Of a stretch of 43,891 bases of DNA, positions 1-43,891 are shown piece after piece (within the stretch, counting starts at the first letter, position 1; each line of letters opens with the position of its first letter). The notes under the pieces were generated by a model, which saw only the letters and a program-made list of their open reading frames with translations, did not search any database and had not been told where the DNA came from. The stretch is from Asterionella formosa (taxonomy: Eukaryota), in NCBI GenBank assembly GCA_002256025.1, contig NKIB01014399.1:1-43891 (forward strand), given 5' to 3'. A program made the position numbers and the translations under genes.

Positions 1-1391
1 AGCAGTATTTCCGCCACAGTCATTCCTCTCCGCTGCCCACCAAACAAGCAACCCTGATCATTCCATTCTGAGCAAGCGTGATCGCCACGCTGCTCCAGAA
101 CTATTGACTCTCTCTAGCTGAGTATTCTTCATGTAGCTTCTGATACGAACTCGTAGTAGAATTGTAGCAAAGCGCGTTAGTACAAGAAATGCATTGCTTG
201 GCGGCAATATTGACATCATTGTCAAGCAACAACTATACAAATCAACAAATACGATCAACAACGGCACAATACCACATCTTCAATGAGTAGTCATTGATAA
301 ATGCATTGGTTCTCATGTAGATATGTACAATCGAAACAAAACGACAGTGCGTAACGACAAACAACGATGGAAGCGATCAAAACAAACCACGGAAGCAATC
401 AAATCGGAAAGTCGATAAATACGATCTACAATCCATATTCAGTATTTCACTGTCGTACTCACTTATCCGCTTCAACTAGCATAACAAGCAGCAGACGATG
501 GGATAAAGGAAAGACGAACGTTGCCTATTGCAAGCCCGAATAGAGCAAAGGCAGGCAAGATAGAGTGAGAACTATATTTGTGAGGACGAAATCGGGCATA
601 CGGTACGTAAAATCAATGAATATGTGAACGATATAATTCAACATTTCAGGTCTCGTAAAAATAATACCGAGTCTACAGAGATAATATTATAACGTGTTCA
701 AAGTAAGCGTTAAAGCATGCATGGTTGTTTTTAGTACCACGTACGTATGTAGACTAGATGACTGCCGGTACCGGTAGAATATCCGTTAAGCATCATTACA
801 TACATGACCGGAACAAAAACTTTTTACCAACATCAGATGTATCGATATCATCGTGCGTCCGACGAAATATGGACGATGCGACTACATGAATACCTCGAGA
901 AGACAAGCAATCCAACAATCAACCGCGTCCGTTAGGCAAAGAATCGCTACTGGCGTCATCGCGGAACTGATTTCGCTTCAAACCGGTCATGATGGACGAC
1001 GACTGGCATGGTGAAAGGTGAATTGCCGAAGTCCACTTTTCAGGAGACGAACAAAAACGAGGTGAATTCTAGATATAAATTATTAGAATCTTTATAGTCT
1101 ATAAAATGGTTTCCTTAAGTAGACCCCTTGCCGATTTCGGCAATCCCAGGGCTGGAAAACCGAGGGGCAATTGGTGTCTGTTGTCTTGCCAAAATGCGAA
1201 CATATGAAATATACAAAATATATTTTAATGATGGGCAATATCGGACCTTTGGCAATTTTCGAGGTGAAGATAGGAAATATCCAAAATATATTTTATATGA
1301 TGGGCAATAGTAGGCTAAAATTGACATTTATGCTAAATTTGTGGGCAGTAGGTAAGCGAATGACGCGACGATAGCTAGAGCGGGAATTGCC
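1..1391 (+). mobile_element. Element A copy 1 (non-autonomous; right part only, left end lies outside the window)
   Basis: Direct, highly similar repeat of ~11337-12740. Ends in GACGATAGCTAGAGCGGGAATTGCC (1367-1391), the same 25-mer found at 3543-3567; near-identical versions end at 12740 and start (reverse complement) at 10796, and a 16-bp remnant starts at 43598. Subterminal GGCAAT words are repeated between 1139 and 1310. Confidence 0.85.
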
Positions 1392-1394
1392 TCA

Positions 1395-1578
1395 ACAATA
1401 CCCTTCTCGGCGGCTACTTGCCTTCTCGTATACATGTGTACTCGACTGGGATGGCACTCGTAGGGTGACCTTCTCGCAGCGCCGGGGGCGCCACTCGTAC
1501 GGTCAACCTACTCGCGCCACCCAGCCTCGAACACACGTATACTCGCGCAGGCATGAGACCTCCTCGGGCGTGTATTGC
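1395..1578 (+). repeat. Element B copy 1, ~184-bp imperfect palindrome (MITE-like or att-like)
   Basis: Near-identical reverse-complement copies at 10609-10792 and 43413-43594. Arms pair throughout (CAATAC/GTATTG, TGCCT/AGGCA, GTATAC/GTATAC, CTGGG/CCCAG, GTAGG/CCTAC, TGACC/GGTCA, GCGCC/GGCGC). Confidence 0.9.
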
Positions 1579-1599
1579 TGAAGGCAATATTGAAAGATT

Positions 1600-3401: not shown

Positions 3402-3567
3402 TTACTGTTATTCTGGCTGTCATGCTAAAATCGGCAATTTTAATCCAGAAAAATTCGATGTGCCCCATATTGCCCCTAAATAGAAATTTCTTAACAAATT
3501 ACTTTTGAGCCTAAAAATTACTTACAAGCACCCGAATGGCAAGACGATAGCTAGAGCGGGAATTGCC
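3402..3567 (-). mobile_element. Left end of an element-A-family transposon, downstream of the recombinase pseudogene
   Basis: Reverse complement of ~10796-10965 (e.g. AATTCGATGTGCCCCATATTGCCC, GAGCCTAAAAATTACTTA, CCCGAATGGCAAGACGATAGCTAGAGCGGGAATTGCC). Weaker similarity extends back to ~3140. Confidence 0.85.
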
Positions 3568-8152: not shown

Positions 8153-8543
8153 TAGGCGCATTATCCTTATCATTTCCCTTTGCTAGGTTCCTGTTAAAAC
8201 TGCTTTGAACAAATTATTACTTTTCGCTTATAAGTCAGAAATTTTCAAGGTGTAGCTGAGGATGTAGCGCTCCTCTATATGTGAAGGAGCTACACTGAAC
8301 ATTCACATGCATGTATGATCGATATAAAAATGTGACACACAGTGTCAGTCAATCAATACAGCGCGAAGTTAACCATCATGTCTTCAGAGTATACATTCAT
8401 ATTTACGCAAGCATGAATGAATTAACCTTATTATCACATACGATTCTCGAATGCACATAAATTTGCTTTGCCACATGATAGCTAGTTGTAATCATACCAA
8501 GTGTATGGTAAATAATCATTATGAAACATTGTAATCCATCTTC

Positions 8544-8864
8544 CCTGTAAAACATTCATTTATTCAACAGTTTGAACCTCTACAATTAAAATGCGTCTTG
8601 TAAATATTCATATCGTCTGTTCTTGATGGCATATCATTGTTGAATCAATGGTTGAATAATAATCTGCCACCTCTAATGAACATCCAGAGCATCTACAATG
8701 ATTTCCTGTGAAACATTCATTTATTCAACGGTTTGAACCTCTACAATAAAAATGCGTCTTATAAATATTCATATCGTCTGTTATTGATGGTATATCATTG
8801 TTGAATCAATGGTTGAATAATAATCTGCCACCTCTAATGAACATCCAGAGCATCTACAATGATT
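8544..8864. repeat. Tandem duplication, 161-bp unit x2
   Basis: Units start at 8544 and 8705 (CCTGT.AAACATTCATTTATTCAAC...CATCTACAATGATT); six substitutions seen. Confidence 0.95.
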
Positions 8865-9265: not shown

Positions 9266-10012
9266 AAGTTTTGTTGGTACCTTCGGTAGGATCAAAAAGG
9301 ATTTTTCATCCAAAAATCTACCAATCGACCTATCCATGAACTCACTAGATAGTGATATATGGATGTGATTACTAGATGCTGTATAAATAGGATGGCATTC
9401 TTCTTGTTTAGCATACCATCAGCCTACACAATGGAATAGCAACCGTCGTTAGAATATTGGCCTCATTCATATTGCTTTAGTTGTCAATAGTTCTTATCCA
9501 ATGCAACCATAATCAAGTTTTGTTGGTACCTTCGGTAGGATCAAAAAGGATTTTTCATCCAAAAATCTACCAATCGACCTATCCATGAACTCACTAGATA
9601 GTGATATATGGATGTGATTACTAGATGCTGTATAAATAGGATGGCATTCTTCTTGTTTAGCATACCATCAGCCTACACAATGGAATAGCAACCGTCGTTA
9701 GAATATTGGCCTCATTCATATTGCTTTAGTTGTCAATAGTTCTTATCCAATGCAACCATAATCAAGTTTTGTTGGTACCTTCGGTAGGATCAAAAAGGAT
9801 TTTTCATCCAAAAATCTACCAATCGACCTATCCATGAACTCACTAGATAGTGATATATGGATGTGATTACTAGATGCTGTATAAATAGGATGGCATTCTT
9901 CTTGTTTAGTATACCATCAGCCTACACAATGGAATAGCAACCGTCGTTAGAATATTGGACTCATTCATATTGCTTTAGTTGTCAATAGTTCTTATCCAAT
10001 GCAACCATAATC
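9266..10012. repeat. Tandem triplication, 249-bp unit x3
   Basis: Units start at 9266, 9515 and 9764 (AAGTTTTGTTGGTACCTTCGG...GCAACCATAATC). Copies 1 and 2 look identical; copy 3 has two substitutions. Confidence 0.97.
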
Positions 10013-10608
10013 ATTGATGATGATGATTGACATGGCATGATGAATTTACTAAATCATTCCATAGAATTAAATAGCAAGCCAGCAATACTAAGGAGAAATA
10101 ATGGCATAAATGGCATTTTAATTCGGTGCTTTGGCTGGGTGCACCAGCCGAGTACATCGGGTAGCCGCCCATAGATTGTAGTTTGTTGGAAATTTAGCAT
10201 CACGAAATATTTGTTTTGCATGAATATACATAGAGTCGTTTTATTCAATTTTCATTCATTTATGTATCACTGGTGAATGTGTATGAATTTACCAGTCGTT
10301 GATAATGAATCATGATAAAACACATGCATGCCATTCACGCTCAGCCACAACCTTGTACTCGATCACCTCTCTCACCATGATAAATATTTCTGCTTGTCAT
10401 TGTTTGATCCTTACCTTTTAAGCCTTGTTGCTATATTATCAACCAGCAATGTCTCCTTCCTGATTGAGAACAGTTCCGGCCACTCATGTGTACCATTCGT
10501 TCCATGTTCCTTGAGATTGTTCGATGCATGGATTTGATTTTCAGGCATAACTAAACCAGCGCAAGTCATCGAAGCCGAAACACTTACCGGTACTCCTAAA
10601 TGCTGAAG

Positions 10609-10792
10609 GCAATACACGCCCGAGGAGGTCTCATGCCTGCGCGAGTATACGTGTGTTCGAGGCTGAGTGGCGCGAGTTGGTTGATTGTACAAGTGGCGCC
10701 CCCGGCGCTGCGAGAAGGTTATCCTACGCGTGCCATCCAAGCCGAGTACACATGTGTACGAGAAGGCATGTAGCCACCGAGAAGGGTTTTGT
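10609..10792 (-). repeat. Element B copy 2
   Basis: Reverse complement of 1395-1578, preceded by TGC-TGAAG (10601-10608) and abutting the left end of element A. Confidence 0.9.
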
Positions 10793-10795
10793 TGA

Positions 10796-12740
10796 GGCGA
10801 TTCCCGCTCCAGCTATATCGTCTTGCCATTCGGGTACTTTTAAGTAATTTTTAGGCTCTAAGTAATTTCTTAAGTAATTTTTATTTAAGGGCAATATGGG
10901 GCACATCGAATTTTTCGGCAATAAAATTGCCGATTTTAGAATGACAACCAGAATAACGGTAATATGCGTAGAGATGGTACAACAAGCGTAAAACACACGA
11001 GAATGATTGTAACATGCAACATCAATGAAAATTGAAGATGATGTTTGGAGCAACCTAAGTATGAAATGCGATGTAATAAGTAGCATCAAATGAGAAAAAG
11101 AAAAAATTGTTTTGGGTTAGAAATGAAGTAAAAAATAATAAGAGTTTCAATGGAGATGTATGCATTGTGATATTGTAGTACTTACACAGGCAATTGAATT
11201 TCCATCACCACACAATCAATGACCGAAATAAGAAGGGAAGGAGCTGAACCCAATCTTGACCTGCATCGTTATGTAGCGTAGATGATCTGCTTGCTGTAAC
11301 CAAGCACATCGCTGTAGCTAGGAGCCTGACACAAGTTGCAGTCTTTCCGCCCACAGTCCTCGTTCCTCCCACCAAACAACCCTGATCATCATTCCATGAT
11401 TCCAATCCATTCTGATTGAGTATAATCGCCAGGCTGCTCCAGCACTATCGACTCCCTCTAGCTGAATATACATAGCTTCTGATAAGAACTCGTAGTAGAA
11501 ATGTAGCAAAGCGTGTTGTTACAAGAAAAGCATTGCTTGGCGGCAATATTGACATCATTGTCAACGACTATACAAATCAACAAATATGATCAACAATGGC
11601 ACAATACCACATCTTCAATGATTAGTCATTGATAAATGCATTGGTTCTTATGTAGAAATATACAATCGAAACAAAACGACAGTGCGGAACGACAAACAAT
11701 GACGGAAGTGATCAAACAAACCATGGAAGCAATCAAATCAGAAAGTCGATAAATATGATCTACAATCCACATTCAGTGTTTCACTGTTGTACTCACCGAT
11801 CCGCTTCAACTAGCATAACAAGCAGCAGACGATGGGATAAAAGCAAAACAAATGTTGCCTATTGCAAGCCCGAATAGAGCAAAGGCAGGCAAGATGGAGT
11901 AAGAACTATATTTGTGAGGACGAAATCGGGCATGAGGTATGTAAAATCAATGAATATGTGAACGATATAATGCAACATTTCAGCCAGGTCTTGTAAAAAT
12001 AATACCGAGTCTACAGAGATAAATTATAATATGTCAAAGTAAGTGTTAAAGTATAGCTTAAACCATGCATGGTTGCTTTTAGTACCACGTACGTAGTATA
12101 TAGACTAGATGACTGCCGGTACCGGTAGAATATCCGTTAAGCATCATTACTTACATGACCGGAGCAAAAACTTGCCACCAACATCAGATGTATCGATATC
12201 ATCGTTCGTCCGACGAAATATGGACGATGCGACTACATGAATACCTCGAGAAGACAAGCAATCCAACAATCAACCGCATCCATTAGGCAAAGAATCGCTA
12301 CTGGCGTCATCGCGGAACTGATTTCGCTTCAAACCGGTCATGATGGACAACGATTGGCATGGTGAAAGGTGAATTGCCGAGTCCACTTTTCAGGAGAGGA
12401 AGAAAAACGAGGTGAATTCTAGATATAAATTATTAGAATCTTTATAGTCTATAAAATGGTTTCCTTAAGTAGACCCCTTGCCGATTTCGGCAATCCCAGG
12501 GCTGGAAAACCGAGAGGCAACTGCTACAAATTGTAATGCCAAAATGCGAAGATATGAAATATACGAAATATAATTTAATGATGGGCAATATCGGACCTTT
12601 GGCAATTTTCGAGGTTAAGATAGGAAATATACGAAATGTATTTTATATGATGGGCAATAGTAGGCTAAAATCGACATTTATGCTAAATTTGTGGGCAGTA
12701 GGTAAGCGAATGACGCGACGATAGCTAGAGCGGGAATTGC
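10796..12740 (+). mobile_element. Element A copy 2, complete ~1.95-kb non-autonomous element with terminal inverted repeats
   Basis: Starts GGCGATTCCCGCTCCAGCTATATCGTC and ends GACGATAGCTAGAGCGGGAATTGC. Left end matches 3402-3567 (reverse complement), and the right 1.4 kb matches 1-1390. No convincing ORF. Confidence 0.88.
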
Positions 12741-12745
12741 TTAAA

Positions 12746-12839
12746 GCAATACTCGCCCGAGGTGGCTACATGCCTTCTCGTATACATGTGTACAGGTACT
12801 CGCAGCCATGAGACCACCTCGGGCAGAGGGGTGTAATGC
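12746..12839 (+). repeat. Element B copy 3, internally deleted (~94 bp)
   Basis: GCAATACTCGCCCGAGGTGGCTACATGCCTTCTCGTATACATGTGTAC...TACTCGCAGCCATGAGACCACCTCGGGC...GTGTAATGC followed by CTTCA-GCA; both outer arms of B are kept and the centre is lost. Confidence 0.85.
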
Positions 12840-12943
12840 CTTCAGCATGCAACATATGTACTGTGCGCTACCATCAGGTTGTTTACCACAAAATTCTCGT
12901 ATGGAACAAGCAAAAAAAAAACCGATAGATCACAACATCAACC

Positions 12944-24644: not shown

Positions 24645-27600
24645 ATGACGTCCTTACCTTACCACCAAGATCCACCTCCCAGTGGACGCGAGCGCGCTTT
24701 AGAGACTCTCATTGACATGGATGCACAAGGGTCACTGTACAGAGCTGCTAAGGCTTTGGTAAGTCTTTCTTCTTTGTTACTGCCGTACATTTTCTACGTG
24801 CTTGCTCCTCCCAAAATATCGGTCGCCTCGAGCTACGACCAACTGTATCGCTTCTCTGATCATTTGTTGGCTGCCCTCTTTAAATTAAGGACGATGGAGT
24901 TCCGCAAGCTCTCAGCAGTCGGCCAAATTTAATTACAAGGTCTGCGCTTGTCGAACAAGCGCACTCGTTAGGTAGATATGAAATTGATTCTGCCGCCAAA
25001 TATGAAGCTGTTTTTGGACGCCTCGAGCTCGTCAAGACAGAATCAAACGCAAACGAAGCCCGTAAAGAGCGGATTCTCAGACATTATCGTAAAATGATGA
25101 CCTTTAGAGATCAATCTGCTCCGGCACACCATGGTCCCTTAGTGGAAACCTTAACACGACTGTGTGGGGATTCCAAGATATCTAAACAAATGATCAAAAC
25201 AGTGTGTTCTCATTCCATTTACGCCTCCAAAACAAGTTATATCGAGAATAGCGATAGGGAAATTGCAACTTTGGAATGTATGATGGCAAATTTGGTGGAA
25301 CAGAAGGAACCTGACGTGCCGGGAATGCTGATTGCGACACTTGGCATTCTCACTGGATCCATGCTCGAGAAGGAAGACAATGAAGCTCCCAAACTTGGAA
25401 AAGGCGAAATGCTAACAAAATCTACTTCCAAAAAGCTTGATGCCGTTGAGGATATCCCTGGTTTGACTGTTGGTAGTATCCTCTCGCTTTTGGAGCCGTT
25501 GGAAGAATCCCAGGGTCCCTTTGGACTTGATCCTACCATTTTAGATTATCTCGGAACCGCCGCTGCTGCACATGAAGAGCGTATTGAGGTGCAAAAATCG
25601 CGCTTGCAACATGTTCCCCTTGTGGCATTCACGGACGCTGGCGACGAAGCTGGTACTGGTATTTCATCCGCAGCCTTTGACCGTATTCTTTCCGCTGTCA
25701 CAGCAGCAGAAGTCGAGGAAGACAATTTGAGCTTAGACGGTGCCCTACGATTAGCCCAGGCTGCCCACATGGATTCGTCAGAATCAGATGACTCCGACTT
25801 CGAGGAACCGCAAGTGGAACAGGAAGACTCATCAGATTCAGAAAGTGAGGAGGAAGTGAATATTAACGAGGACCATGATTTACTGCGACAAGCGCTCGCA
25901 TTGAGTTTGACAGGCCGTAGCTTTGACGAAGATTTTGATGAGCAGAAGGAAGAAGACATCGTTCAGCCGCAGATGCCAGAGTTGGAAGATGCCGAAAGCA
26001 AAGGGCACGCCATAGCTGACTACGACGAGGTTGATTTACCACCTCTGCCCGAGCCGCTACATTATTACCCATATTCTTTATTGCAACAAGAAGAAAACGA
26101 AGATATCACAAGTTATGTGGACCCTTCATCTCATGCAAAATTTGGATATATTCCTGCATCTCATGCCATGGTCCACACGTTTCGAAATGCTATGTCAATT
26201 ATTCTTAAGACAAGAGCAACAATTTCCTCAGAAACCCAAGAAATGCCATCGATTCCAGGAGGTATGGGCTTATCGCTATTCATTTCTCATGCGGAAGTAA
26301 CGAAACCGAAGAGAAACGACCTCTCAGGGTGTGCGCTCACGATTCAGTTACTTGTAATTACTCTTCTATTAATGTCTGAAAACCGAAATCTGGCGATTGA
26401 AGGCTTGAAGCAAGCTATTTTGGAAGAACAGCACTATGTCGAAGAAAAGGAAGAGCCATTGTCCGACGAAGAAGATGACCCTTTGGCCATTCGTGCGGTG
26501 GCGTCAGTCGCATCTTTGACTGAGTGTTTGGCAACGAAGGGGATGAGGCGCAAGGCGGCCGCTGCAGCCCACGACGCCGCCAATCGCCTCAAATCACTTC
26601 GGAAAAAGACTGATGCATGGAAAGATAGGCTTAAGTTGTATTCGCACTGCACGTTACTGAGTTTGCGGTGTCTGAAGCATTTCTTGCAAGGGATCGTATT
26701 GACGTGGCTACAGGCGGGGGGACTTTCTGTGGTTGACATCCACGAGATTTTACCATCAAGCGTTTGGTCAAAGCTAAGTGCATGTCTAGCGACTCTGGTG
26801 TCGGTACAGTTGACACGATCATTTGCAACCATGACTTCCGGCGACGATTCAAACGAGCTCGAAGACTTTTTAATGCCTTTTCGAATTTACAAAGAAGCCG
26901 TTGTGGCTTGGGGTGAATGTGTTCCTTTCCTTTATCCATCAAGAACATCCAGATCTGAAGCACTGAAATCCTTAATCGTGGAATGTTTTGAGGTTGTTCC
27001 ATCTGGCGCTGCCATTGAATCTCTGTTGACGATGCCCTCGACTGAGATGGATGCAAAGATGCATCGCCTCCAAACATTGTGTAAACGTCTCTGTGTCACC
27101 GATTTGATGAATGGCTTTGTGGACCGTCCAATTTCCTTTACAATTGATGACTCAAATGTTGAAAAGGAAGTGAAGGAGGATCCTGTACGAGCCAGTCCTC
27201 TTGTAAAACTTCTAGCATCTTCATGCTTGGTTTTGCATGATGCAGGTTATCTCAGAAATTTTCATCTTGCGCTTTGTCATCGATTAAATCTACGAGGACT
27301 ACTTTGGGACGGTCTTTACTTGGTTTCACACATCGAAACTGAAGATGCATCATCTCCTTCCCCTGCTTCCACAGCATCAACCACAGATGCTATCAGAGTT
27401 GTTCAAACACCGTCAAACAGTCTGGTATTTGATTCATTGAAATGTTCCGATTCAATCGCAATACTGTCAAATCAGAGTCATGGTGAGGGAAGTTCTCCTG
27501 TGAATGGTTCTTCTGCCCATCAACGAGCATCGAAAGTTTGGGGAACCGTCCTTTCCTCGCTGCATTTCAGCCCAAACACTGGAGTGCATCGATGGGCAGT

Positions 27601-30600
27601 TCGCTTGGACAAATGTGAGCGAGGCCATGTATTTGTTGGGGTCGCGACTGGTCAGGCTAGTACGAGAACATATGTCGGCGGTGACAAGAATGGATGGGGA
27701 GTCATCGGAACCCAGGCATTGTGGCACGACCGTAGAAAGATCCGAGGTGACTATGGGGCGACATTCCGAACTGGATCGATTATTATCATCACACTGGACA
27801 CTGATGTTGGCACACTAAGCTTTAGTTCTTGGAAGGATTCTACTGGACCATCTAGTGCCTTTTCATTGGATCCCCTTCTCCCTTCACCTCGGAGGCAAAG
27901 TCAGAGTTCATGTGGCACTGTAGAGGAATGGGGGGTCGCATTTGAAGGTCTCCCTATTGATTCGAAACTGTTCCCTGCTGTTGGACTGTACCAACGCGAT
28001 GACCGCGTTACACTTCTGCATGTGGACAGTGGGAGCCGATCTATTAGCAATGACTACCTTGTCAACGAAACCTCAATTGGTGCATCGTGTTACTTCCCTC
28101 ATCATCTTGATGCTGCAGTTTACAATGACCACCTACTCTCTAAGTTTATGTCGGTGAAACAACACAATTCTTTGCTCGCTATGGATATTCTGCAGTACGC
28201 CATTGATACATTACATGAAAGCAGCTCATCCATCGAAGCAAATGTTTCAGCCGTCCTTCCAAGCATTGCAGCCTCGCTTTGTCTGCTACCCTCGTCAATC
28301 CCAGTACTCTCTGAACGACTTGCATTAGTGTTACTTCCACATGTTACGAAATGTATCAAATCATTCGAACACCACAAGGGCGATACCATCCTGTTCAAGG
28401 AAGGGTTAGTGGAAGGCAAGTGGGTTATCAGAGCAACTGGGTCATCAGGTAGCTCAACTAGTATGGATTGCGAAGAGTACGTTGTTGATCTAACCAGTGT
28501 CTCGGACGAACATAATTTTTCAATCGGTTTCCAAGGCTGTGGAATTGGCACGACTGGAAAATCAAAAAATGGACTTGTCAAGATAGCTGGGGCAGTTCAC
28601 GGTTCATCGGTTCATTTCGAAGAGGAATGGACGGATGTAAGCGATGAATGCAACTCATCCGCCGATGAAACCGCGTCATCTTGCCTAGTAAATGCTCGCC
28701 TTAGCTTGGACGGCAGGAAATTTGAGGGGACATACCGCAACATTCAGTATGGAACTTCAGGTCACATTGCAGGGATTCTGACCTCGTCCAAACCCGAAAC
28801 AAACGAAATTAGTGCTATCCTCTGCCAGGCCCTTCTCTGCCTTGCACATGGACATCTACTGAGCATTGTGAGCGAGGATCGTGCTGGAGACATTGAATCA
28901 ATGGGTGGACATGATTCTCCCTCCAATATCACCAAAACTCTTGGGATTCAAAGGCGAGGTCGTCTCGACGAACAACTCGCAAGTCATCTCCTTTCTTATG
29001 GGTTTGTCGACGGCGATCATGTGCAATTAAAAAATGCCATCCAGGATTTGAAATCATTTTATTCGTACCGAGAATTACAGTGCGAGAAGCCCTACCACGA
29101 GTGTGCTATTGTGTACCCACATTTGTTAGATACCGACCCCTTCGTCAAAAAAGAAAAACAACAGACCCAGGCCAGTGGAGTACTGTTGCAAGAAGTCATT
29201 TCAATGGACGATGATGTAGCAGCATTGAACGGAGGAAAAGGCTCGTTGGCGATAATTTGTCCCGTCGAGTACTTGAATGCCAGGCAACACCTAATTGCAT
29301 GCTTTTTACGTCACTTACATTTTGATGGTGAAAGGCAATGCGATTATTTGGGAATGGTTTGGAAAACGGCGTTGAAGACCATGGACGATGGCCTGAGAGC
29401 TACACTCGCGTTTGACGATGGCACTAGCCGGCACGATAGAGCTTTAGCTTTCTGTGATCATACAATGGAGATGTGCCTTTTCTTAATGCAGATCGAACCA
29501 AATCCGGAAATTTCAATATCGCCTGAAGACACGATGGCTGAGATTGTTTCATTTTGTACAGTCATCATTGGGAAGTCCGATTTGGACTACTTGATGTCAA
29601 GGATGCGCGTTGCCATAACACGATCGTGCCTTCGCGGAATTGCTTTCCAGCAGGTGAAGTCAATCATTCATCATTGCTCAACAGAAACACACGATACAAG
29701 TACCCGACACATTTTGGTTGATTGTATCGCTGCATCTGCCCCCCGTCTCCTCGGTCGTGCATTCAGCCCTTCAGATCGCAGCAAGAACCGAAGACATGGG
29801 GATAATGATCTCCTTTCAAGTAACGATCTAGGTTCCTATTTTCTTTCTGGCCTATCCGGGGCTGGACTGGCAGCTTTGGATGGAATAAGAGAGAGCGTGT
29901 ATTTCCTACTGGGTCAATTCATTTTGGTGACGAAGGAGATTGGCGATCATGCTTACAACGCATCGACAGAGTCGTTGCTTCTTTCTAGTTTGGCTTGCTT
30001 TATGATGTCGTTCCGTGCTGTTGACATTCGCTCGATTGCCGAGGAAAGCGGCATTCTTTCCATTTTGCCGGTAGTTCTGAGCAGGCATCAAAAATCCTTG
30101 GCGCTTGCCAACTTGTTTACCGACGAAGGTGCCGAATCCAATCTTGTTCCTTTTTTACAGGAAGTCACCAAAGATAACGTTGCACGTGCCTTGTTATGCG
30201 CGGCTGTGACGGTAGCACATTCATTTTCGTTCCAGGTCGCGCAAAATGTGAAAGACCCTGATTCCGTGGTAGCCTCTCAAAAGTGTGAGATGATCCTGCT
30301 TGAGGAACTCCGACAAACGATACCCTTTCTTGAGAAAAGCATCAAAAATAGCTTAGTACGCTTCAGGGAAGAGCAATCCGAGGAGCAGTATTTGAAATGG
30401 CTTGAAACGTGTCGTCCAGAGAGCGATCTTAAGACGTCCAATTTGTTGATTATGAAGCGAACAACGAGTGCAAAGAACTCATCTGTTGGAATGTCAATTT
30501 TCGGACAGAGCGGATCTTTTGCTGCGCCGTTCATTAGTCAGGCAAAAGCAGTGAAGCCTTCAAAATCATCGATTTGTCAAGCCAGATCGACCTCAATCAC

Positions 30601-33600
30601 TTTTTCATCAAGGGGAGATGACCTTCTTGCCTTAATGGGCAACCCTGCTCAGCAACACCTGTCACATTTGCTTCACGTCTTGTCTTGTCTTATCACGTCA
30701 CCGTCATTTCCTTATTTGTTTTCGGATTCGGCATGGTTCGTTTTATTGCTTGAAGCAGCCGGTCTCCAATCTGATATCCCTTCAGTGATTGATGAGTTTT
30801 CCTGTGGTACTGGGAGCAGCAACCAGCTTTTACCTGGGAGATACAGGGCTAGAATTTTGAGGCTCTGTGAGCCTCTATTATCGCGATCGGTTCCGGATAT
30901 CAAAGTAATTCGTGGTTTGTTAATGATCGCAGGAAACTCAAGCCCTATGATGAGCCATAACATCGACGACGACGATGCTCTAGTGTCCAGCGAGGCGCTA
31001 TCGCTTCTTAGAAGCCTTCACGCTGAAAACCAAGTCGGTTGGCAAACTGCCATTCAAAAAGAAATAAAGATTAAATTTGACAACTGCAGCGAACCTTGGA
31101 TCTCGGATCCTTCTGTTGTTGGTACTGTTCTATTTCTGTCAGGAAAGATTGAAACCATTCGTCGGGGATCTTATGTTCTTCTCAAACCAGCAGCAGCGGC
31201 TTTTCTTTCTTTGGACGGACAATCCCCGCCCAGCAACAAGTTACACGGCAACACATTCCCTAGTGGTACGAGTGGTAGCAACGCTATTGCGCCCCACCAT
31301 GTTGTAGGGAACGGAACCGAGGGCATTGTGTCTGGATTGTGCCGGGCAGATGCCTCGGCGGGAATCGTGAGTGACGTCGACATGCATACTGGTGTATGTG
31401 AGATTATTCTTATGGAGCGTCACAGACAGAATAGGATTGAGGATGTCACTACTTTGGGCAATTCAAAGGAAGGAAAGGGGTCGAACATGTCAAGGGCTAC
31501 TCTCACTGTAAGAGCACTGCGAACTCCGTTGTCTGTCGTAGCACAAGCCGAAGAGATGCCATTGTATTTAGACAATTCCTTCCCTACTGATGGTTTCTTC
31601 ACAAAGCTCTTACCTGCTGCTATCAGAAAAGTTGATCACTCTATAAGCAACAATAGTAAGGTTATGAAGAACGAGGTTTCAGATATTACTGACGCTAGCA
31701 ATGGATTTGCTCTTCTTGTGCTGAGAGCCTGTATTGTTCTCCTGTCCGATGAACGTATACTTTTGGGCTTTTTGGAGAGAGAAGATTCACGAACGACTTT
31801 GAGCCAGCTGTTGCGATTGGCTTGCATGAACAAAGGCCTAACAAATGAATACCAAGCATATCAACCTGAATTTCTCTCGTCGCTCTCATCGCTTGAAGCA
31901 AAATTTAGCCATATCAGTGCGATGCTTTCCGAGATTGGGATCCGTAAGGTAATGTTGGAGGGAACTAGTTATTTAAGCTGGTCTCGCATACACGAGGAGT
32001 ATATTGCTCTAATTAGCAACACAAAAGACACGAAAAGCGAAAACGAACCGGCAGGGGTCGGAGCTAGTATTAATAGTGGTTCTTCCACAGAACCCATACC
32101 ATTTCCTGCTGAAGTCGAAACGTCTACAGGTTCTCGAATGAACGCAGCTCCCTTGGGTCGAACTGGTAATCTGTCATCTTTCAGCTCTAACAGCACAGAG
32201 GATGCCGATGACAACGAAGCAGCAGCAACAGCAGCTGCTCACCACCGAGAAGCAGCAATTGCACAGATGGCAGAGTTAGGTCTCCCAAGGTCTTGGTCGG
32301 AGCTGGCACTCAGGAGAACAGGTGGGACGAATATTGAAACAGCTGTGAATTTCTGTCTGGAACGGGGTGGAGATATGGAACGATTACTGATCGAAGAGCG
32401 TGAACGTGAGCGCGTTTTGCAACGCCAATCATCAAGTTCCGTTTCTCGCCGTCGAAGCACTAGGAATGATAGCAACAGTGCCAATCATCTGCTTCGTCAA
32501 CTGTTGGAAATGGGGTTTCCAAATAGATGGTGCACTGAGGCACTTATAGCTACGAGAAACAATGTAGACGAGGCTCTTACTTGGATCCTGGCGAATGGCG
32601 AACGGCTGAGTGCTGAAGATGAAGGCATGGAAGAAGAAACTAGTGAAGCCGACGAGGACCAGGATGATTCGATCGAGGAGGAGAGTGGTGAGGAAGATGT
32701 AGACGAAGACGTTGAAGACACTCCTACACCGGAAGGAGAATCTAGCCCAGCGAACGACTCATCTCTCCTAACAAATGATGCATCTGCTCCAAGTGTCGAA
32801 GAATCTTGCTCCCTGATAGGGGCAGACGACGGACAAGTAGATTGCACCCTATCAATGGAGTTAGAACCTACGATGAACGTTGGCCCCGCCGATCCCTCAC
32901 AGAAAGATATCAACCCATCTGCTCAGCTGGTGGTGCTCAAGGACGATACAAATTGCGAGAAGGGTGGATGGGCTGGTTTAGTGACACCTTTAAGATTTAT
33001 TTCTGGGCGTTCCATTATTGATCCACAAACACTAGCTATTTCGGGACTTCCAACTGGTGGATTCTCATCTGTGGGAACAAAAGGAGTGTTGCTCACTTCT
33101 GGAAAGTGGTACTATGAGGCTATTTTAGAAACTGCTGGCTGCCTGCAAATTGGATGGGCAGATGGAAGCTTTGCTGGACATTGTCACGCAGATCGCGGTG
33201 ATGGTTGTGGGGATGGGCCAAGTTCGTGGGCATATGACGGATGGAGAAGGTATAGATGGCATGCAATTGCTACAGAGTGGGGTTGCCGATGGAAGGAAGG
33301 TGATGTGGTTGGATGCTTGGTCGACATGGACGAACACCGTGTATCCTTTACTTTGAATGGACTTGGCGAAGAAATTGGAATGGGAGTGGCTTTTTCTGGG
33401 AATGGGTTTCGGCCTTGCGGAGGAGTGTACGCTTGTGTAAGCTTCAATCGTAGAGAGAAACTCCGTCTCATAATTGGAGGGGACGGTACGGAATCGTTCA
33501 AGTATACACCTCCGCCAGGTTATCACGGTGTAGGTGAAGCTCTGCAGGCTGCGGTCAAGGAAAGGCGTGAACTCATTAAGAAAGAAAGTGTATTAAACTT

Positions 33601-36600
33601 AAGGCTCGCTTTTGAACCTGAGGATTCCGGCAGTTCTAGTCGCTTCTTGTGCGATTTTTCCGACGGTGAGCACGGCCATGAACTTTTTGCGTGGCAGCAT
33701 AGATATTATGGATCAGACGCATCTGTGCACCTTGGGTCTGGGCGAAGTTCCCGACAGTCAGGCGCAGTCAAGGGCTCAAGTACACACAGTAAGAATGGAG
33801 AACTGTGTGTGGTAGAATCTGTTTCATCTCGTCTCGAGAAAATGTGGTCAAATTCGAAGCTAGCAGCAGATATGAGAATTGAAAGTATCAACTTCGCAAA
33901 ATCAGCCATGGTTGATGGGTACGATGGTATGGTGAAGAGTCTTTGTTCCACCATGACGGACGTTCATGCATCACTTGGCGTTCTTTACAGTCGAAAACTT
34001 GTGTTACACCTTATTATTGTTCTCGGTGAACGCTTTGATTTACGGGCATTTTTATCCTTGGATTCCGAGCCACCTTCTGAGTCTGACGAGCTTTGCACAG
34101 CGCTGCAACTTTGGGAGGTGTTGGATGCATGCGTAAGTCTCCGAGCAGCTGGCTGGGTTGGAGAAGCCGGGGCAATGGCAGTAGCAGCAGAGGCGCTCGG
34201 GCTTGGTATTTCCACTAATGATCATCAACATGGACGCCATTACACAGCAACCGATGAACACAGTCCTTTCTCGTCGTCAAATGCAGACGAACAATTCGTA
34301 GTGCCTGCTGCGGGACTTGCTCAACTCCTGACGACTGTTGTTCTGTCAAAGGAATGCAAATCATCTCCGTCGCTTCGATACACAGGACGAAGTTTGGCGG
34401 CCAGTGCCGAAGCTGCAATTGGGGCAGATGGAGGGGGTGGTCCTCTCGTTTTCTTACAACGTGGACTACAAAGCGCGGCGTGCAAATCTCGTCCATTTTG
34501 CGAAGTTCTTGTCGCAGTTGTGCGTCGATCAGTACGGCAACTTGCGGTCATTGACTACTCAGGCGACGATTTGGCTCAATTGGAAGGTACCGAAGACGAC
34601 GAAATGGATAACTCGATCGGAGCATTCAACAAATCAAAAACGGAAACTCGCGATGACAACGACCAAGATACATCCTTACAACCTGATGCTCGCTTGGCGT
34701 CATTCCTCACTGGTTTGTTGCTTAGTAACCCTGTCCATGCGTCTGTACCAGATAAAGTGTGGCTGACGGGGTCCCTTCTGGAAGCTTGGAGTATAGGTTT
34801 GCTCTCTGCTTCGGCACCATGGCGAATGGTGTGTGCTCTAACAGCATCTGGTATTCTCAACATGGCACCAACCGCGTTGGTTTGCGCAACTAGTGCTATC
34901 CCAGCACTCGAACGATTCTATAGTAGGTTACCTGGTACAGTCGCACGGAGGATATGGGCAGAACGCGCAGCAGTTCCTGTATGTTCTCGATATGTCCAAT
35001 CACTTGTCGAGTTACTTGCAAGTGCACGACGAGCTATAGCGGTATCTTCACCCACAGCCTCTTTTCTTAGAACGTGGGAAAGCTTTGAAGTTGACGCTGC
35101 CATGCCAATACCCTTCGATAAACCCTCAATGCTCTCATTTGAAATCCCAGGGAACGCCTTTATTGAGGAAGCGAATTGTGTCTCAAACTGGGAATGGTCT
35201 GATGGATGGTTATCGAACGATACAGGGTGGGAAGTTTGGTCCGGAGTTGCAGAATTTGTTGCTGTCGACTGGAAGCCTCCTTCCCGATCAGCGGTGCGAA
35301 CTCTCATGGATGGCGGAGAAGGTCCACCCATGCTTCGCGAAGGATGCATTGTCATGCGAGGACTTGACTGGGATGATGACAAAAATGACGATGATAAAAT
35401 TCAATACGAAGTCGAAAAAACAGAACGAGAGAAAGAAAAGAAGTCCCAGGAGGAATACGCTTCGAACGACATTGATCCAGCATCATCATCCCAACCTGTT
35501 CCCGACGACGACCAAGACCCCGTTGCAGACATCATTTCGCAAGAGGGAAGAGAGGACTCAATGGCAGCGTCCGAAGGCAAAGAACATGCAATTTCGCACA
35601 AGGACGTCCAGTGTACACCAGTCAAGAAGAAGAAACGCAAGAAGCTACCCAATCCAAAGCTCCCGACTGGCACGGTGCTGGCTATCGAGGAATGGGATGG
35701 TGTTCCCGCAATGGCTCGAAGAGTGAGATGGGATCGAACTGGCAAAGAGGGGATCTATCGCTATGGTGGCGATGGCGGCAGATACGACATTTGTCATGTC
35801 GAAGTCAACGAGAAATTTACTCGACTGCGCAAAAAACATCCACTTCCCGAGAGTGCAGAACAGTGCGCATCTCGGCATGGGTTTGGAGTTGCAAAGAAGT
35901 ACTGTATACTTCTGCGACTTCGTGAATTGGACAAAGATTCTGCTAACAACATGACGAGGAGACGTCGTCGCGAAGGCGTATTAGAATGGCCAGATTTCGG
36001 TGCTGGCGTTCGTGTAGAGTGCATTTTGAACGCAGATAACTCTGTTACAATCGAAGAGAAAGAGCTTTTGTATGGTTCCAAAGATGCTGGATGGGAGGCC
36101 AGATTCGGGCAACCTTCATTTGTGCCCAACACAACCACTGTTGTGATTCCGAGCGCTCGATCAATCAACACTCAGAACCAGGCTGAAGCAGATGCAAAAT
36201 CTTCGTTCATTTCCATGTATGAAGAACTTTTTGGAAGTAGTTGCCATGATGTTGCTCTACTTCGACATCGTGCCAGCGGTGACAGGGTTCGAGTCATATG
36301 TACAATGAGATTATTGCGAGGTCGACGGTCTAGACAAGATGGAGCTCCATTCACCCCGTCAACGTGCCCTCCTCCAATACGGTTCGATCGTGACTTTCAT
36401 GCTACTTCGTTGTCCCTATCGCGCGATGGCCGAACCGTAACTTGCGTTTCGCCCGACGGTAGAGGGACAGCGTTTGCCTCAACTGGGTTCACAAAAGGTG
36501 TACATTACTGGGAGGTGAAGCTAGAACAGGCCGATATTGGAAGCGTTTTCATTGGGGTGGCTGAGAAACCCAGTGGATCAGGGTCTGGCTCAACATTTGG

Positions 36601-39600
36601 AAATGATAGTCCACCCCGTCTCAATCGTTGGATTGGATGGGGACTTGTTAACTTTCGGGCCACTTATACATCGGGAGCCGAACGTGTTTATGGTGCTCAT
36701 TGCCACACCGACGACACTGTAGGCGTTCTGCTTGATTGTGATACCGGCAGGATATCATTCTTCTATGATGGCTTAAAGTATGGTGAGCATATCCTGAATG
36801 ACCTCGGTTGTGCGTTCGAGAATGTTTCTCCGTTTGGTTTCAATGCCGATGGCTGCGGAAGTGGAGGAGCAGGTCAAGGAGCCCCTTCCGCTGTTGAAGG
36901 CGGCCGTGGTGGTCGATATCCTGCTCACGGAGCTGTGAGACCTCGCTCTCTTTGGCCAGTTATTGGTCTACGAAATCCAGGTGACCGTGCCACGTTCTCG
37001 ACGAAGTGGATGACTAGCCTCGGAGTTGACAGCTCGATTACCTTAAAGAATATCCTTGCTGTGGACGAGGTACTTTCTCGTTACGATTTGAAAATAAAGA
37101 ACGGTCACGGTTTTCCGGAGTGGTTCGTTCGAGAATCGTTTCAGGAATTTAAGCGTTGGGAATGCGGCAGATGGTTTAGGACCGAGACTAGAGCAAGCGG
37201 GCCTCATCGACTTTCCAGTTTTGGCCTCGATGTTGAAGTCGACACTTCGCCATTAGCATGCGCTGTTGCATGCGCTGGTCTTGGTCTTCGACGTGCCCTC
37301 CTTCATGGCGACCGTGTTGTTGTGAAACGAAGTGCCGGTCGGATTTTGGAGCTGTCCGAAGAGGCTATTATTCTGGGCGCTTACCAAGGTCGACTGTACT
37401 ACCAGATTGTTTCGCAGAAGAGCGAGGGCGGGAGTCTGACTGAGGGTGGTGGCCGAGCTTGGTTTTGGGATGAAAGTGAAGCTGTCGACGATTCCCTGCA
37501 ATTGGTTGGGAGAGGGCAAGGATTTGATATTGATTTGCCCCTTATTGACCGCTTCACTTGCCTGTCCAAAGGTGGTTTGCGAATAGTTTACGAGGGAGGA
37601 GCTGTCGTAAGGTCGGATATTGAAATCTTTGATCGATCCCAGAATATTGGATCCATCAGTCATGGGGTAGTGATACCTCAAGACGATGTACTTGAACGTC
37701 GTGTGAACTCCTGTGGAGTTGTAAGGTACCGCGTTCGCTACGACGGTGTAGGCGAAGGATGGATAAGCAGTAGAATTCGAGGTGGCAAGGAAGAGCCAAT
37801 TATTGAGCCCGTTCGTGGGGATGCACTCGAAATCGAGACAGAAAGTAGATTCCCTACTCCAATGTGTGCTGCTCAAGCTTGGTACGAGACTTTCAAAAGA
37901 GCAACCCTGAGCGATTCTGGTATTCCAAACGACCAGTCAGAGTACAAACAGCAGTTTAGCATCAAGGATTTAGACGAGTTCAAAGGGCTGATTTCTGACC
38001 TACCAAAAGATACCTCGTCGGCCCAGCTGGACCAAGTGATATCGTCCTTGGTAGGGATAATTGCCGATTTCTCGGAAAGTGGCGATGCCGTCGAATGTTC
38101 GTTTGCTGAAACGACCATGGTGGTTTCATATGCCTTATCATCGATCCACAATAAGCGGCTGGATGCACAAATCGAAGGGAATCCTCAAGCGAATGAGGCC
38201 GCTGCTGCCTTCTTAGTAACTCATAATGTCACTCTTTCTGCAAGAGTTATAGTTGCTCGAATGGCAATTCTTCGCGCATTCAACAGGCGAATCCGCCTTG
38301 CGCTTCCATGGCTTACTGTGAGACCAAGTCAGGAAGGTTCTGCGATTCTGGGAGGTCTCTGTGGTCATGGTGCTTTGGCAGAACGAGCCGGACGTCAAAA
38401 AATTTCAAAGTCCACGGAGCTATGGGTGCAAGTGCCTTCAATAGCATCTAGAATCCGTGACCATCGCGGGCTTGTCTTTGGCAGCGTGAAGCGACTCTTA
38501 CTTGACAGCATCACATTTGCCACAACAACTCCAACTCCTCTGTCCCACGATGAATATGAGCTCCCCCGAGAGATTCGAACAGTGAGAGTAAACCGCTTGA
38601 AGGCGAAGCGAGCAATGGCAGGTTCTGACAATCTAATAAAACGGAAACATAGTGTGTTTTCTCAGCTGCAGAATGAGACTCGAAGTTGGGGTGGGGCGGC
38701 TTTACGTCGAGGCTTTGTTGCCAAGGGCCATGGTGGCCAAAAACGAGCTTTCAAGGTCAAACTGATTGGCGAGGGTGTGAACGACTACTCTGGACCGTAC
38801 CGTGAGGTTTTCACAGATGCTATGCACGATGTTATGGAGTTCGACGAAGCTGGCCGCGGAATTGTTGGTGTTCTAGATCCGACTCCAAATAAGGCTGCTC
38901 AACTCGGTGACAACCGAGATCTTTACATGTTCGCATGGGGTGATGGTGATTTGCGTAGCTATGACGAAGGTTGGAGATCAGAAGAAGAGCTTCGGATAAG
39001 GCGTTCCTTCGCCATCCTTACAACATCTTGTGACGAAGCTTCTCGAGAAATTGGAGAGTCACTCGCTTTCTTGGGTAGATTAGTGGGCACAGCTTGTCGA
39101 CATGGCATCCCAGTTGATTTGCCACTTCCTATGAATGCCGTCTGGAAGGCCATTGTAGAAGAAAAAACTGATGAAATTGAATCCTTGCGTGAAATGGACT
39201 TACTGGCATCACGTCAATTTACCAATTCCCTCGACTCCCCACCTTTGCTTTGGTGGCAGAGACGTATGCTTAATTCCTTTGTCGATGGCATGTCCAATGT
39301 CTTGCCTGTGGAAATCCTCACATTGCTTTCTGGTGAAGAATTACGTGACATCATTTGTGGCAACCCTGATGTTGACGTTGACTTGCTGAAACGAGTTGTA
39401 GAATACGAAGGTTATGAAAAAAATGACCCTGTTATTGGCTTCTTCTGGGAATCTTTGCGCGAAATGACAGGCGACGAGCGTAAAAAGTTCTTACAATTTG
39501 TCTGGGCTCGAAGCCGCCTTCCAAACAAGGAGTCAGATTTTGAAGCACCGTTTAAGATCATGAAGGGAACGGAGAAAACGTCAGATGAATCGTTGCCCAG

Positions 39601-39757
39601 TGCCAGCACATGTTTCTTCTCCCTGACTCTTCCATGTTACTCTTCGAAAGAGATTTTGAAAAGAAAACTTTTGTTTGCTATTGAAAATGTATGTACGATG
39701 GAATCTGATTATGTGACGAACGATGCTGAAATCGGCGAAGGATGGAGAGGGTTGTAA
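24645..39757 (+). CDS. Giant HECT-type E3 ubiquitin ligase (~4993 aa): UIM, 3 SPRY, 2 UBA, MIB/HERC2, HECT
   Basis: Exon 1 24645-24758, phase-0 intron 24759-24889 (GTAAGT...AAG), exon 2 24890-39757 open throughout. UIM-like DLLRQALALSL (~25880); SPRY GVHRWAVRL (~27580), GKWYYEAILETAGCLQIGW (~33100), GVHYWEVKL (~36500); UBA QMAELGLPRSWSELAL (~32265) and QLLEMGFPNRWCTEAL (~32500); MIB/HERC2 VMRGLDW...GTV...VRWD...YRYG; HECT FKVKLIGEGVNDYSGPYRE...LPSASTCFFSLTLP with catalytic Cys. Confidence 0.95.
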
Positions 39758-43260: not shown

Positions 43261-43412
43261 CGAAGGATAGTAAAGAAAAATCTATGACAAGGGTGGTGAG
43301 ATAGTGTTTAGGAGGGGGGAGCAAAAGTTATCATAGCTGAACACATTCGAAACTCGTATAGACAATAAATGGTGGCATAACCTTGGCTGCTCTTGGCCGA
43401 AAGTTGCTGAAG

Positions 43413-43613
43413 GCAATACACGCCCGAGGTGGTCTCTTGCCTGCGAGTATACATGTGTTCGAGGCTGGGTGGCGCGAGTAGGTTGACCGTACGAGTGGCG
43501 CCCCCGGCGCTGCGAGAAGGTCACCCTACGAGTGCCATCCCAGCCGAGTACACATGTATACGAGAAGGCAAGTAGCCGCCGAGAAGGGTATTGTTGAGGC
43601 AATTCCCGCTCTA
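43413..43613 (-). repeat. Element B copy 4 (43413-43594) plus 16-bp stub of the element A terminus (43598-43613)
   Basis: Reverse complement of 1395-1578, preceded by TTGC-TGAAG and followed by TGA-GGCAATTCCCGCTCTA, then unrelated sequence. Confidence 0.9.
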
Positions 43614-43891
43614 CCGGTATGGATGTGAGAAAATTTCTTCCATCCTACCGGTAGTCTGTCTGTATGGATTTTTATATGCCGGTATAAATAACAACATAGC
43701 GGTACCTGATGAGTTTATGAGAACAAAAACCTCCAAATACAGATATAAATAAATATAGTCATGGATGAATAAATGCAAAAGATTTATTATATATATATGG
43801 TGATGAGGATGAGGATGATGATGGTGCGATGACAACACAAGAAACACCTCACAAGTCCTCTGATGATCATCATCATGGCGGTGATCGTTTT

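Follow-up and report, generated by a model that had tools for sequence, protein, structure and literature searches.

How does a palindrome come to carry the same four-base word ten times on one strand and not once on the other? The question is raised by an imperfect inverted repeat, here called B, which lies at 1395-1578 of the window (the whole stretch of 43,891 bases that was analysed). A word search of this copy, c1, placed CTCG on the plus strand at 1406, 1425, 1441, 1457, 1473, 1494, 1511, 1526, 1542 and 1563 (spacings of 19, 16, 16, 16, 21, 17, 15, 16 and 21). On the minus strand the word does not occur between 1263 and 1632, and the plus strand is accordingly free of CGAG within 1395-1578. 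These are exactly the ten one-strand positions reported in a first-pass annotation of this DNA, and the partner sums of facing words (2969, 2967, 2967, 2968 and 2967) reproduce its range of 2967-2969, so that left-arm words face right-arm words pairwise in the hairpin. CTCG occurs 277 times in the 43,891 bases of the window when both strands are counted; about 0.58 occurrences are expected per 184 bases per strand, while 10 are observed on the plus strand and 0 on the minus strand (Poisson estimate for this split from the window counts, <1e-8). The CTCG pattern is a real feature, far outside what chance would give.

The core common to the words is 4-5 nt long, with flank conservation limited to the avoidance of G at position -1, and in most loops one extra unpaired base stands beside the word. 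A sixth, degenerate one-sided loop pair lies nearer the ends of B (CTCAA vs CTTCA) and is purine-rich on the CGAG strand. An origin of the rod from tandem repeats was rejected, the stem segments between the words being dissimilar to each other when read from the c1 sequence.

B is the outermost ~210 bp of a ~250-bp terminal inverted repeat (TIR) of a non-coding diatom DNA transposon. The parts of this element in the window are the following.

1..1356, plus strand: F1, the right-hand body of a second element copy, 93-96% identical to 11340-12708 and cut by the window start
1357..1391, plus strand: TIR-A beside c1, the inner terminal inverted repeat of ~35-40 nt, ending in ...GACGATAGCTAGAGCGGGAATTGCC and lying directly inside B
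~1392..1590 (start also given as 1371), plus strand: c1, B in the CTCG orientation, with ten words within 1406-1566
3402..3567, plus strand: solo end fragment, a subterminal region with F2-type TIR-A and without B, stopping exactly at ...GGGAATTGCC
~10601..10795 (end also given as 10816), minus strand: c2, left tip of the complete element, with CGAG on the plus strand; the most diverged copy, 8 of 10 words kept
10796..10834, minus strand: TIR-A at the left end of the complete element (motif search and flank comparison)
10835..12704, no strand assigned: interior of the complete element (F2 ... F1), without a match in Pfam or Rfam
12705..12741, plus strand: TIR-A at the right end of the complete element (motif search and flank comparison)
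12742..12847, plus strand: c3, right tip of the complete element, a centre-deleted B with the left outer arm converted and two variants private with c2
43405..43613, minus strand: c4, solo B with 16 nt of TIR-A only, 10 of 10 words kept, flanks unrelated to F1 and F2

The complete copy of 2.25 kb (10601-12847) is built as B(-), TIR-A(-), ~1.9 kb of interior, TIR-A(+) and B(+), with terminal inverted repeats at both ends of one element (c2, c3 and the TIR-A pair). Its inner flanks have in common an inverted repeat of ~40 nt, a GGCAATTTT motif ~120 nt further in and little else, a likeness that appears to be that of the two ends of a TIR transposon. Among the copies compared, the variants GGTGG and CATGCC are exclusive to c2 and c3, as expected of two tips that belong to a single insertion. 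Five occurrences of TIR-A were counted in the window (0.9 expected). The stretch 134-1329 is repeated at 11473-12679 with 93-96% identity, and by eye the homology of F1 extends as far as window base 1 at one site and about 11340 at the other; c1 is the right tip of a second element copy running off the window start. The solo tip c4 matches c1 at 99% identity over 171 nt. In all, B is present in the window in three full copies and one centre-deleted copy, to which a single B-less end fragment is added, and a profile search of the window found no further B copies beyond c1-c4 and the fragment at 3518-3567. Given the B-less end at 3567, B may be an add-on to an older TIR of ~40 nt. The right terminus is constant (...GTATTGCCTTCAGCA) and is followed by differing sequence in c2, c3, c4 and three copies from metagenomes (L004, L048 and L009); differing flanks past this terminus were seen again in loose ends at 1578 in the sequencing runs X4 and X15.

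No Pfam match was found in the four frames that overlap the element (three of at least 90 aa on the complete copy and one across c1), nor in the eight frames scanned in or beside it, and no transposase was found in the window. In Rfam 15, nothing reached the gathering threshold for B or for the complete element (U4, 15.5 bits with a cut-off of 46 bits; mir-4716 on the shortened copy, both strands searched, 22.6 bits with a threshold of 76), and the Rfam search proposed in the first-pass annotation thus matched no family. A target-site duplication (TSD) is absent from the single complete copy, where the longest common word in the 30-nt flanks has 5 nt and is non-adjacent; this is weak evidence, coming from one element, and the duplication could have been lost through the age of the insertion or through recombination between copies.

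The word GGGCAAT occurs 12 times in the window (5.9 expected), and six of the 12 lie in the subterminal regions of the element. Clusters of GGGCAAT/GGCAAT are found there at 1165-1308, 12583-12658, 10889 and 3469, and an internal duplication of ~68 nt at 1198-1240 and 1266-1309. The motifs and the duplication look like candidate subterminal binding-site repeats.

Among known systems, Mutator-like (MULE) and Foldback elements appear to be the nearest kinds by likeness. A MULE of the diatom Phaeodactylum tricornutum has TIRs of ~200 bp and 9-bp TSDs (bioRxiv 10.1101/2023.01.02.522487), and Tm1, a Mutator/Foldback element, has composite TIRs made of 13-15-bp tandem repeats, also with 9-bp TSDs (PMC3169594). 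The element shares with these groups its structured TIRs of ~250 bp, high-copy non-coding derivatives and short subterminal motifs, and with the MULE a diatom host as well. It differs in that no 9-bp TSD flanks the one complete copy; moreover, in the MULE and Foldback arms described there, a motif on one arm is the complement of that on the other, whereas the tip B is itself a palindrome in which the word stays on one strand. Membership among the Foldback elements was rejected: the arms are not tandem subrepeats inverted between arms, and the word keeps to one strand on both. Neither of these sources (10.1101/2023.01.02.522487, PMC3169594) describes one-sided phased loops for Foldback elements, MULEs or miniature inverted-repeat elements (MITEs), and in the open-access literature searched we found no description of a diatom foldback element or of a transposon hairpin with tandem G.A pairs. 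MITEs are likewise small, non-coding and dispersed with distinct flanks, and the solo c4 (209 bp) resembles one; however, most copies here are joined to a 1.9-kb body, a TSD was not seen, and c4 has 16 nt of TIR-A on one side. We file B under the long-TIR non-autonomous DNA transposons, with no TSD in the sole testable copy. The first-pass annotation had treated B as an independent unit; it is instead the terminal module of a long-TIR non-coding transposon, for which 'MITE' is nearer the truth than 'attC-like site'.

Bacterial sites of three kinds offer a functional likeness. Integron attC sites are characterised by R and L boxes, a place at the cassette boundary and a cognate IntI. Like B, they are imperfect palindromes in which the strand is chosen through unpaired features of the folded strand (PMC5027507, PMC3053210). 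They are bacterial, much shorter than B, marked by extrahelical bases and not by symmetric tandem mismatches, and recombined by IntI, none of which was found for B. The end hairpins of IS200/IS605 elements and REP/BIME sequences are read as single-stranded DNA of one strand by HUH Y1 transposases (PMC3333891, PMC8266576). Those hairpins are ~20-40 nt long, on the same strand at both ends and without TIRs, whereas in B the folding strand differs between the two ends, which a TIR element would be expected to show. B would work most like the bacterial strand-selective folded sites (attC, IS200/IS605 and REP), yet it lacks the features that define membership among them. The 3' hairpin of Helitrons is a further hairpin at a transposon end, and the hairpin termini of parvoviruses and poxviruses carry mismatched bubbles that exist in flip and flop forms. 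The viral termini resemble B in mismatches kept through replication and in flipped variants, of which the small terminal loop in c1 and, in c3, the outer arm are examples; they differ in that B is dispersed in a cellular genome, with no viral genes nearby and no matches in scans of viral contigs.

Placing B in a transposon leaves the CTCG pattern itself unexplained, and the core puzzle stands. The first-pass annotation had named a known coding or transposon sequence as something that might account for the pattern; membership in a transposon is confirmed and the explanation is not.

With DNA parameters, both strands of c1 fold into a long imperfect hairpin (plus strand, -45.2 kcal/mol, z = -5.2; minus strand, -52.3 kcal/mol, z = -6.6), and none of 200 shuffled sequences folded as well for either strand. 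The CGAG strand folds better than the CTCG strand in all five full copies, c1, c2, c4, L004 and L048. As RNA, the CGAG and CTCG strands reach -112.9 and -87.0 kcal/mol in c1, -97.1 and -70.6 in c2, -123.0 and -97.3 in c4, -114.5 and -91.2 in L004, and -112.6 and -90.8 in L048; the margin in these five copies is about 22-26.5 kcal/mol as RNA and 5.7-9.8 kcal/mol as DNA. In the majority consensus, the CGAG strand forms a rod of ~95 bp with 67 Watson-Crick and 8 G.T pairs. The five 2x2 loops of this rod, evenly spaced at ~16 nt, all have GA facing GA, with C-G as the outer and G-C as the inner closing pair. At the same positions the CTCG strand has eight C.A mismatches, and T.G pairs are possible at three loop positions only. 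Tandem sheared G.A pairs in a pyrimidine-GA-purine context are stable. Since the tips are inverted, the better-folding strand at each tip runs 5' to 3' inward from the tip, and all ten words have the same orientation relative to the tip at both element ends. The strand-specific fold and the five tandem G.A loops on the complementary strand, both put forward in the first-pass annotation, are borne out by folding the two strands, and its structural inference was right.

Variation among the copies gives a different picture. Variable columns among the five full copies number 3 of 40 in the words and 23 of 169 elsewhere (odds ratio 0.51, P-value = 0.43, Fisher test, with low power from five copies only), which goes against the expectation of the first-pass annotation that the words would be better conserved than their neighbours, and against selection in present copies. 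The covariation it had looked for is hardly seen either, as only one cell of the 75-pair consensus fold (c2, pair 37-173) is changed on both sides. Among the cells that depart from the commonest pair, 13 differ on one side and keep a wobble pair on the CGAG strand, 10 have lost their pairing and one is the both-sided change. By our own count, about eight transition events keep the pairing of the CGAG strand and one or two break it; this bias is a hint and not a result, most of the events being in c2, and a strand-biased C-to-T process would give the same bias. The excess of wobbles (8 vs 3) is not significant alone (binomial, about 0.11) and could also stem from such a mutation process. The stem changes in c2 are mostly uncompensated. 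The word counts given in the first-pass annotation for c4 and c2 were both reproduced; the losses amount to two words in c2 and one in L048, and one word of c3 is converted.

Larger changes were also found. The outer left arm of c3 now reads as the complement of the right arm, so that a CTCG/CTCG loop has become a paired CGAG/CTCG and a perfect helix is formed. The centre of B was lost between TACTCG direct repeats in L009 and in a similar way in c3, and the same centre-deletion junction appears as a loose end at 1444 in 24 records of run X1 and two of run X4. Short forms of B in which the central ~100 nt are gone (L009:283-396 and window 12742-12847) recur in several data sets, and this short B may be a subfamily of its own. 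The last 12 bases of c1 (1579-1590) form a small terminal hairpin with an inverted 5-nt loop (TGAAG, vs CTTCA in all other copies). The copies behave as decaying, rearranging palindromes in which a sign of present constraint is absent, and the one-sided words go back to the founder sequence of the family, from which the copies have inherited them. The suggestion of a selected single-stranded DNA or structured RNA substrate in the first-pass annotation is thus upheld for the asymmetry of the strands and not for constraint in the present copies.

Outside the window, a metagenome search by 17-mer returned 60 loci, three of which carry the element (L004 and L048 in full, L009 centre-deleted); the other 57 had a seed of at most 24 nt or no match. 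A scan of prokaryote genomes gave 14 loci, eight with seed matches of at most 26 nt and none with a longer one, and viral contigs gave no matches to two B patterns. The element was seen in DNA and RNA data sets of 14 studies, and the runs that contain it are freshwater, lake, river and estuary metagenomes and the coded organism A. Contigs over 700-2100 numbered 57,340 in X1 (the probable source run), 251 in the DNA run X4, 35 in X15 and one in X16, and the X1 contigs fell into identity classes of at least 99% (11,425), 95-99% (26,503), 90-95% (16,863) and below 90% (2,549). Summed contig depth was 1.2-1.9 million over B and 6-53 thousand in 1593-2100 in X1, and 91-232 over B and 5-33 in the flank in X4, with the drop located at 1546-1592; summed contig depth is no copy number, and we read it as a sign of a high-copy, diverse family only. 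The family looks abundant. X15 and X16 are RNA libraries: the former has a contig of 2,315 nt with a depth of 600, which runs from near the apex out through the right end, and the latter has one contig of 189 nt, identical over 1347-1535. Parts of 700-2100 are uncovered by the contigs of both libraries, and the run data are assembled contigs, in which strand, RNA ends and small RNAs are not visible.

The best overall explanation, to which we give a probability of about one half, is that B is a transposon tip whose founder was selected as a folded single strand. Such selection fits most features of the founder. Random decay cannot give the pattern, since for each of the five identical one-sided loops two bases of the same arm would have had to change; the first-pass annotation had held that decay of a MITE would not readily give it, and the identical bases, strand, closing pairs and ~16-nt period of the five loops agree with it. 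The founder tip would have been shaped by selection on its single-stranded folded form, most likely DNA exposed in transposition or replication, and a putative transposase would read the exposed strand. In that strand the G.A loops would act as marks of two-fold symmetry, present only in the folded form and absent from the duplex. Present copies would since have been released from constraint, with decay, centre deletion between the TACTCG repeats and arm-to-arm conversion. A role of B as a strand-specific folded substrate is plausible. Within the overall explanation we prefer DNA in transposition as the selected folded strand, a tentative choice that we rate well short of an even chance. It is doubtful whether TIR-transposon tips of this kind are recognised as strand-specific folded single-stranded DNA, and not as duplex, through some five or six phased G.A sites.

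The selected form might instead be RNA. A transcript running inward would carry the CGAG strand, whose ~95-bp rod could feed silencing small RNAs or bind a protein at the G.A loops. This would accord with the RNA folding energies of that strand (-97 to -123 kcal/mol, ahead of the other strand in 5/5 copies), with the confinement of G.U pairs to one strand and with the contigs that cover B in RNA libraries from two studies (X15 and X16). These contigs are strandless, however, carry-over of DNA into RNA libraries is possible, and a transposon tip within an untranslated region would be transcribed anyway. With both Rfam scores below their thresholds and a both-sided change in one of 75 pairs, we consider an RNA hairpin unlikely.

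Subterminal binding-site arrays occur in many transposons, and the CTCG words could form one in the duplex, as direct-repeated sites for a transposase or host protein phased at ~16 bp (~1.5 helical turns), the palindrome being a separate matter. The co-orientation of the ten words relative to the tip at both element ends, their regular spacing, the presence of other subterminal motifs such as GGGCAAT and the longer direct match that words 4 and 6 have in common (CACTCGTA.GGT) would be natural in such an array. But a word of 4-5 nt is short for a sequence-specific site, and an inverted duplication would misorient half of the sites, so that five two-base reversals would be needed. The G.T pairs and the loop-closing pairs that favour the fold of one strand would also be left unexplained, and this reading too has a low probability.

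It is just as improbable that the loops have no function and are a by-product of the origin or homogenisation of the palindrome, for example of an arm-to-arm correction that spares G.A/T.C. Tandem G.A and T.C pairs are poorly recognised by mismatch repair, c3 shows arm-to-arm conversion, c1, c3, L009 and many joints of X1 show small inversions and centre deletions, and the words are unconstrained in present copies. Five loops with the same bases, strand, closing pairs and spacing would nevertheless each require a double change in one arm, and a survival bias would cover the type of mismatch, not the common strand (a chance of 1 in 16 for five loops) or the ~16-nt period.

That B is an attC-like folded substrate of a tyrosine recombinase, as the first-pass annotation had suggested, is very improbable. 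The common logic of an imperfect palindrome whose unpaired features make the strands differ (PMC5027507, PMC3053210) is an analogy only, and nothing points to such an enzyme. The host is eukaryotic, a recombinase gene is absent from the 13 frames scanned (of 39 of at least 90 aa in 1-24800 and eight of at least 150 aa overlapping 24884-39757), and B stands inverted at both tips of a TIR element and not at cassette boundaries, with ~210 nt and five or six symmetric loops in place of two or three extrahelical bases.

If the G.A loops of the preferred folded single strand are a recognition feature, a eukaryotic inverted-repeat transposon would mark one strand per tip by structure alone, which has so far been documented for bacterial integrons and HUH elements. 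The folded single-stranded DNA reading, if true, would place the attC/IS608 logic of structure-read, strand-selective recombination in a diatom element of the cut-and-paste type, and B would offer a small natural system for studying phased tandem G.A pairs within long helices. Should the loops be non-functional, B would still be an abundant and easily recognised repeat of freshwater diatoms, and a clear case from a wild genome of palindrome dynamics, with centre deletion, arm-to-arm conversion and loop inversion.

Several further observations concern single copies. In L004:1-1185, B has a flank of the right-end type on one side (like 834-1391) and one of the left-end type on the other (like 10817-11223). 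TIR-A thus stands inverted to either side of B, which lengthens the palindrome to ~290 nt. L004 may represent two elements side by side, a tandem junction or a join made in assembly; a simple model with one B at each tip accommodates it only as two adjacent elements, and in this it counts against that model. Two adjacent elements are the simpler reading because TIR-A adjoins the left side of B in all other cases, and a flipping of B relative to its flank was dropped for this reason. In the CTCG orientation, c4 (43405-43613, minus strand) and L048 (~504-715) read ...G/GTAGAG and ...TTGCCTTCAG/, which is splice-site-like. B was considered as an introner, given this GT...AG at both copies, and the idea is not supported at c4, the flanks of which are without an open coding frame; an RNA contig keeps half of B unspliced.

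In the neighbourhood of the element, an uninterrupted frame of 4,957 codons at 24884-39757 (plus strand) has a HECT domain, three SPRY stretches, a UBA domain and a weak MIB/HERC2 match, and is predicted to encode a giant HECT E3 ligase. The HECT C-terminus (457 residues) is 85% identical to a metagenome protein, 71% to a protein from a diatom transcriptome (MMETSP) and 64% to one of Nitzschia, and only 36-38% identical to oomycete proteins; the taxa recorded for the HECT domain in a protein atlas were uninformative. The host is a freshwater diatom, most likely pennate, to judge by these two named relatives. Further frames in the window encode a peptidase M23 and an amino-acid transporter.

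Tandem repeats lie between two transposon ends, at 9266-10012 and 8541-8862 (3 x 249 nt with 99-100% identity and 2 x 161 nt with 96%). The palindromic octamer TACCGGTA occurs 12 times in the window (0.19 expected; none of 100 shuffles reached 12), at 769, 10585, 12120, 17018, 18076, 18442, 22341, 24225, 24482, 24495, 43612 and 43646, often in GGTACC-rich contexts (e.g. ctggTACCGGTAcctggtaccagg). Two of the sites are in the transposon body, one is 9 nt from the tip of c2 and one lies over the inner boundary of c4. Directly adjoining c4 is a 42-nt palindrome (43612-43653) with TACCGGTA at both ends, which may be a separate tiny element or an insertion target.
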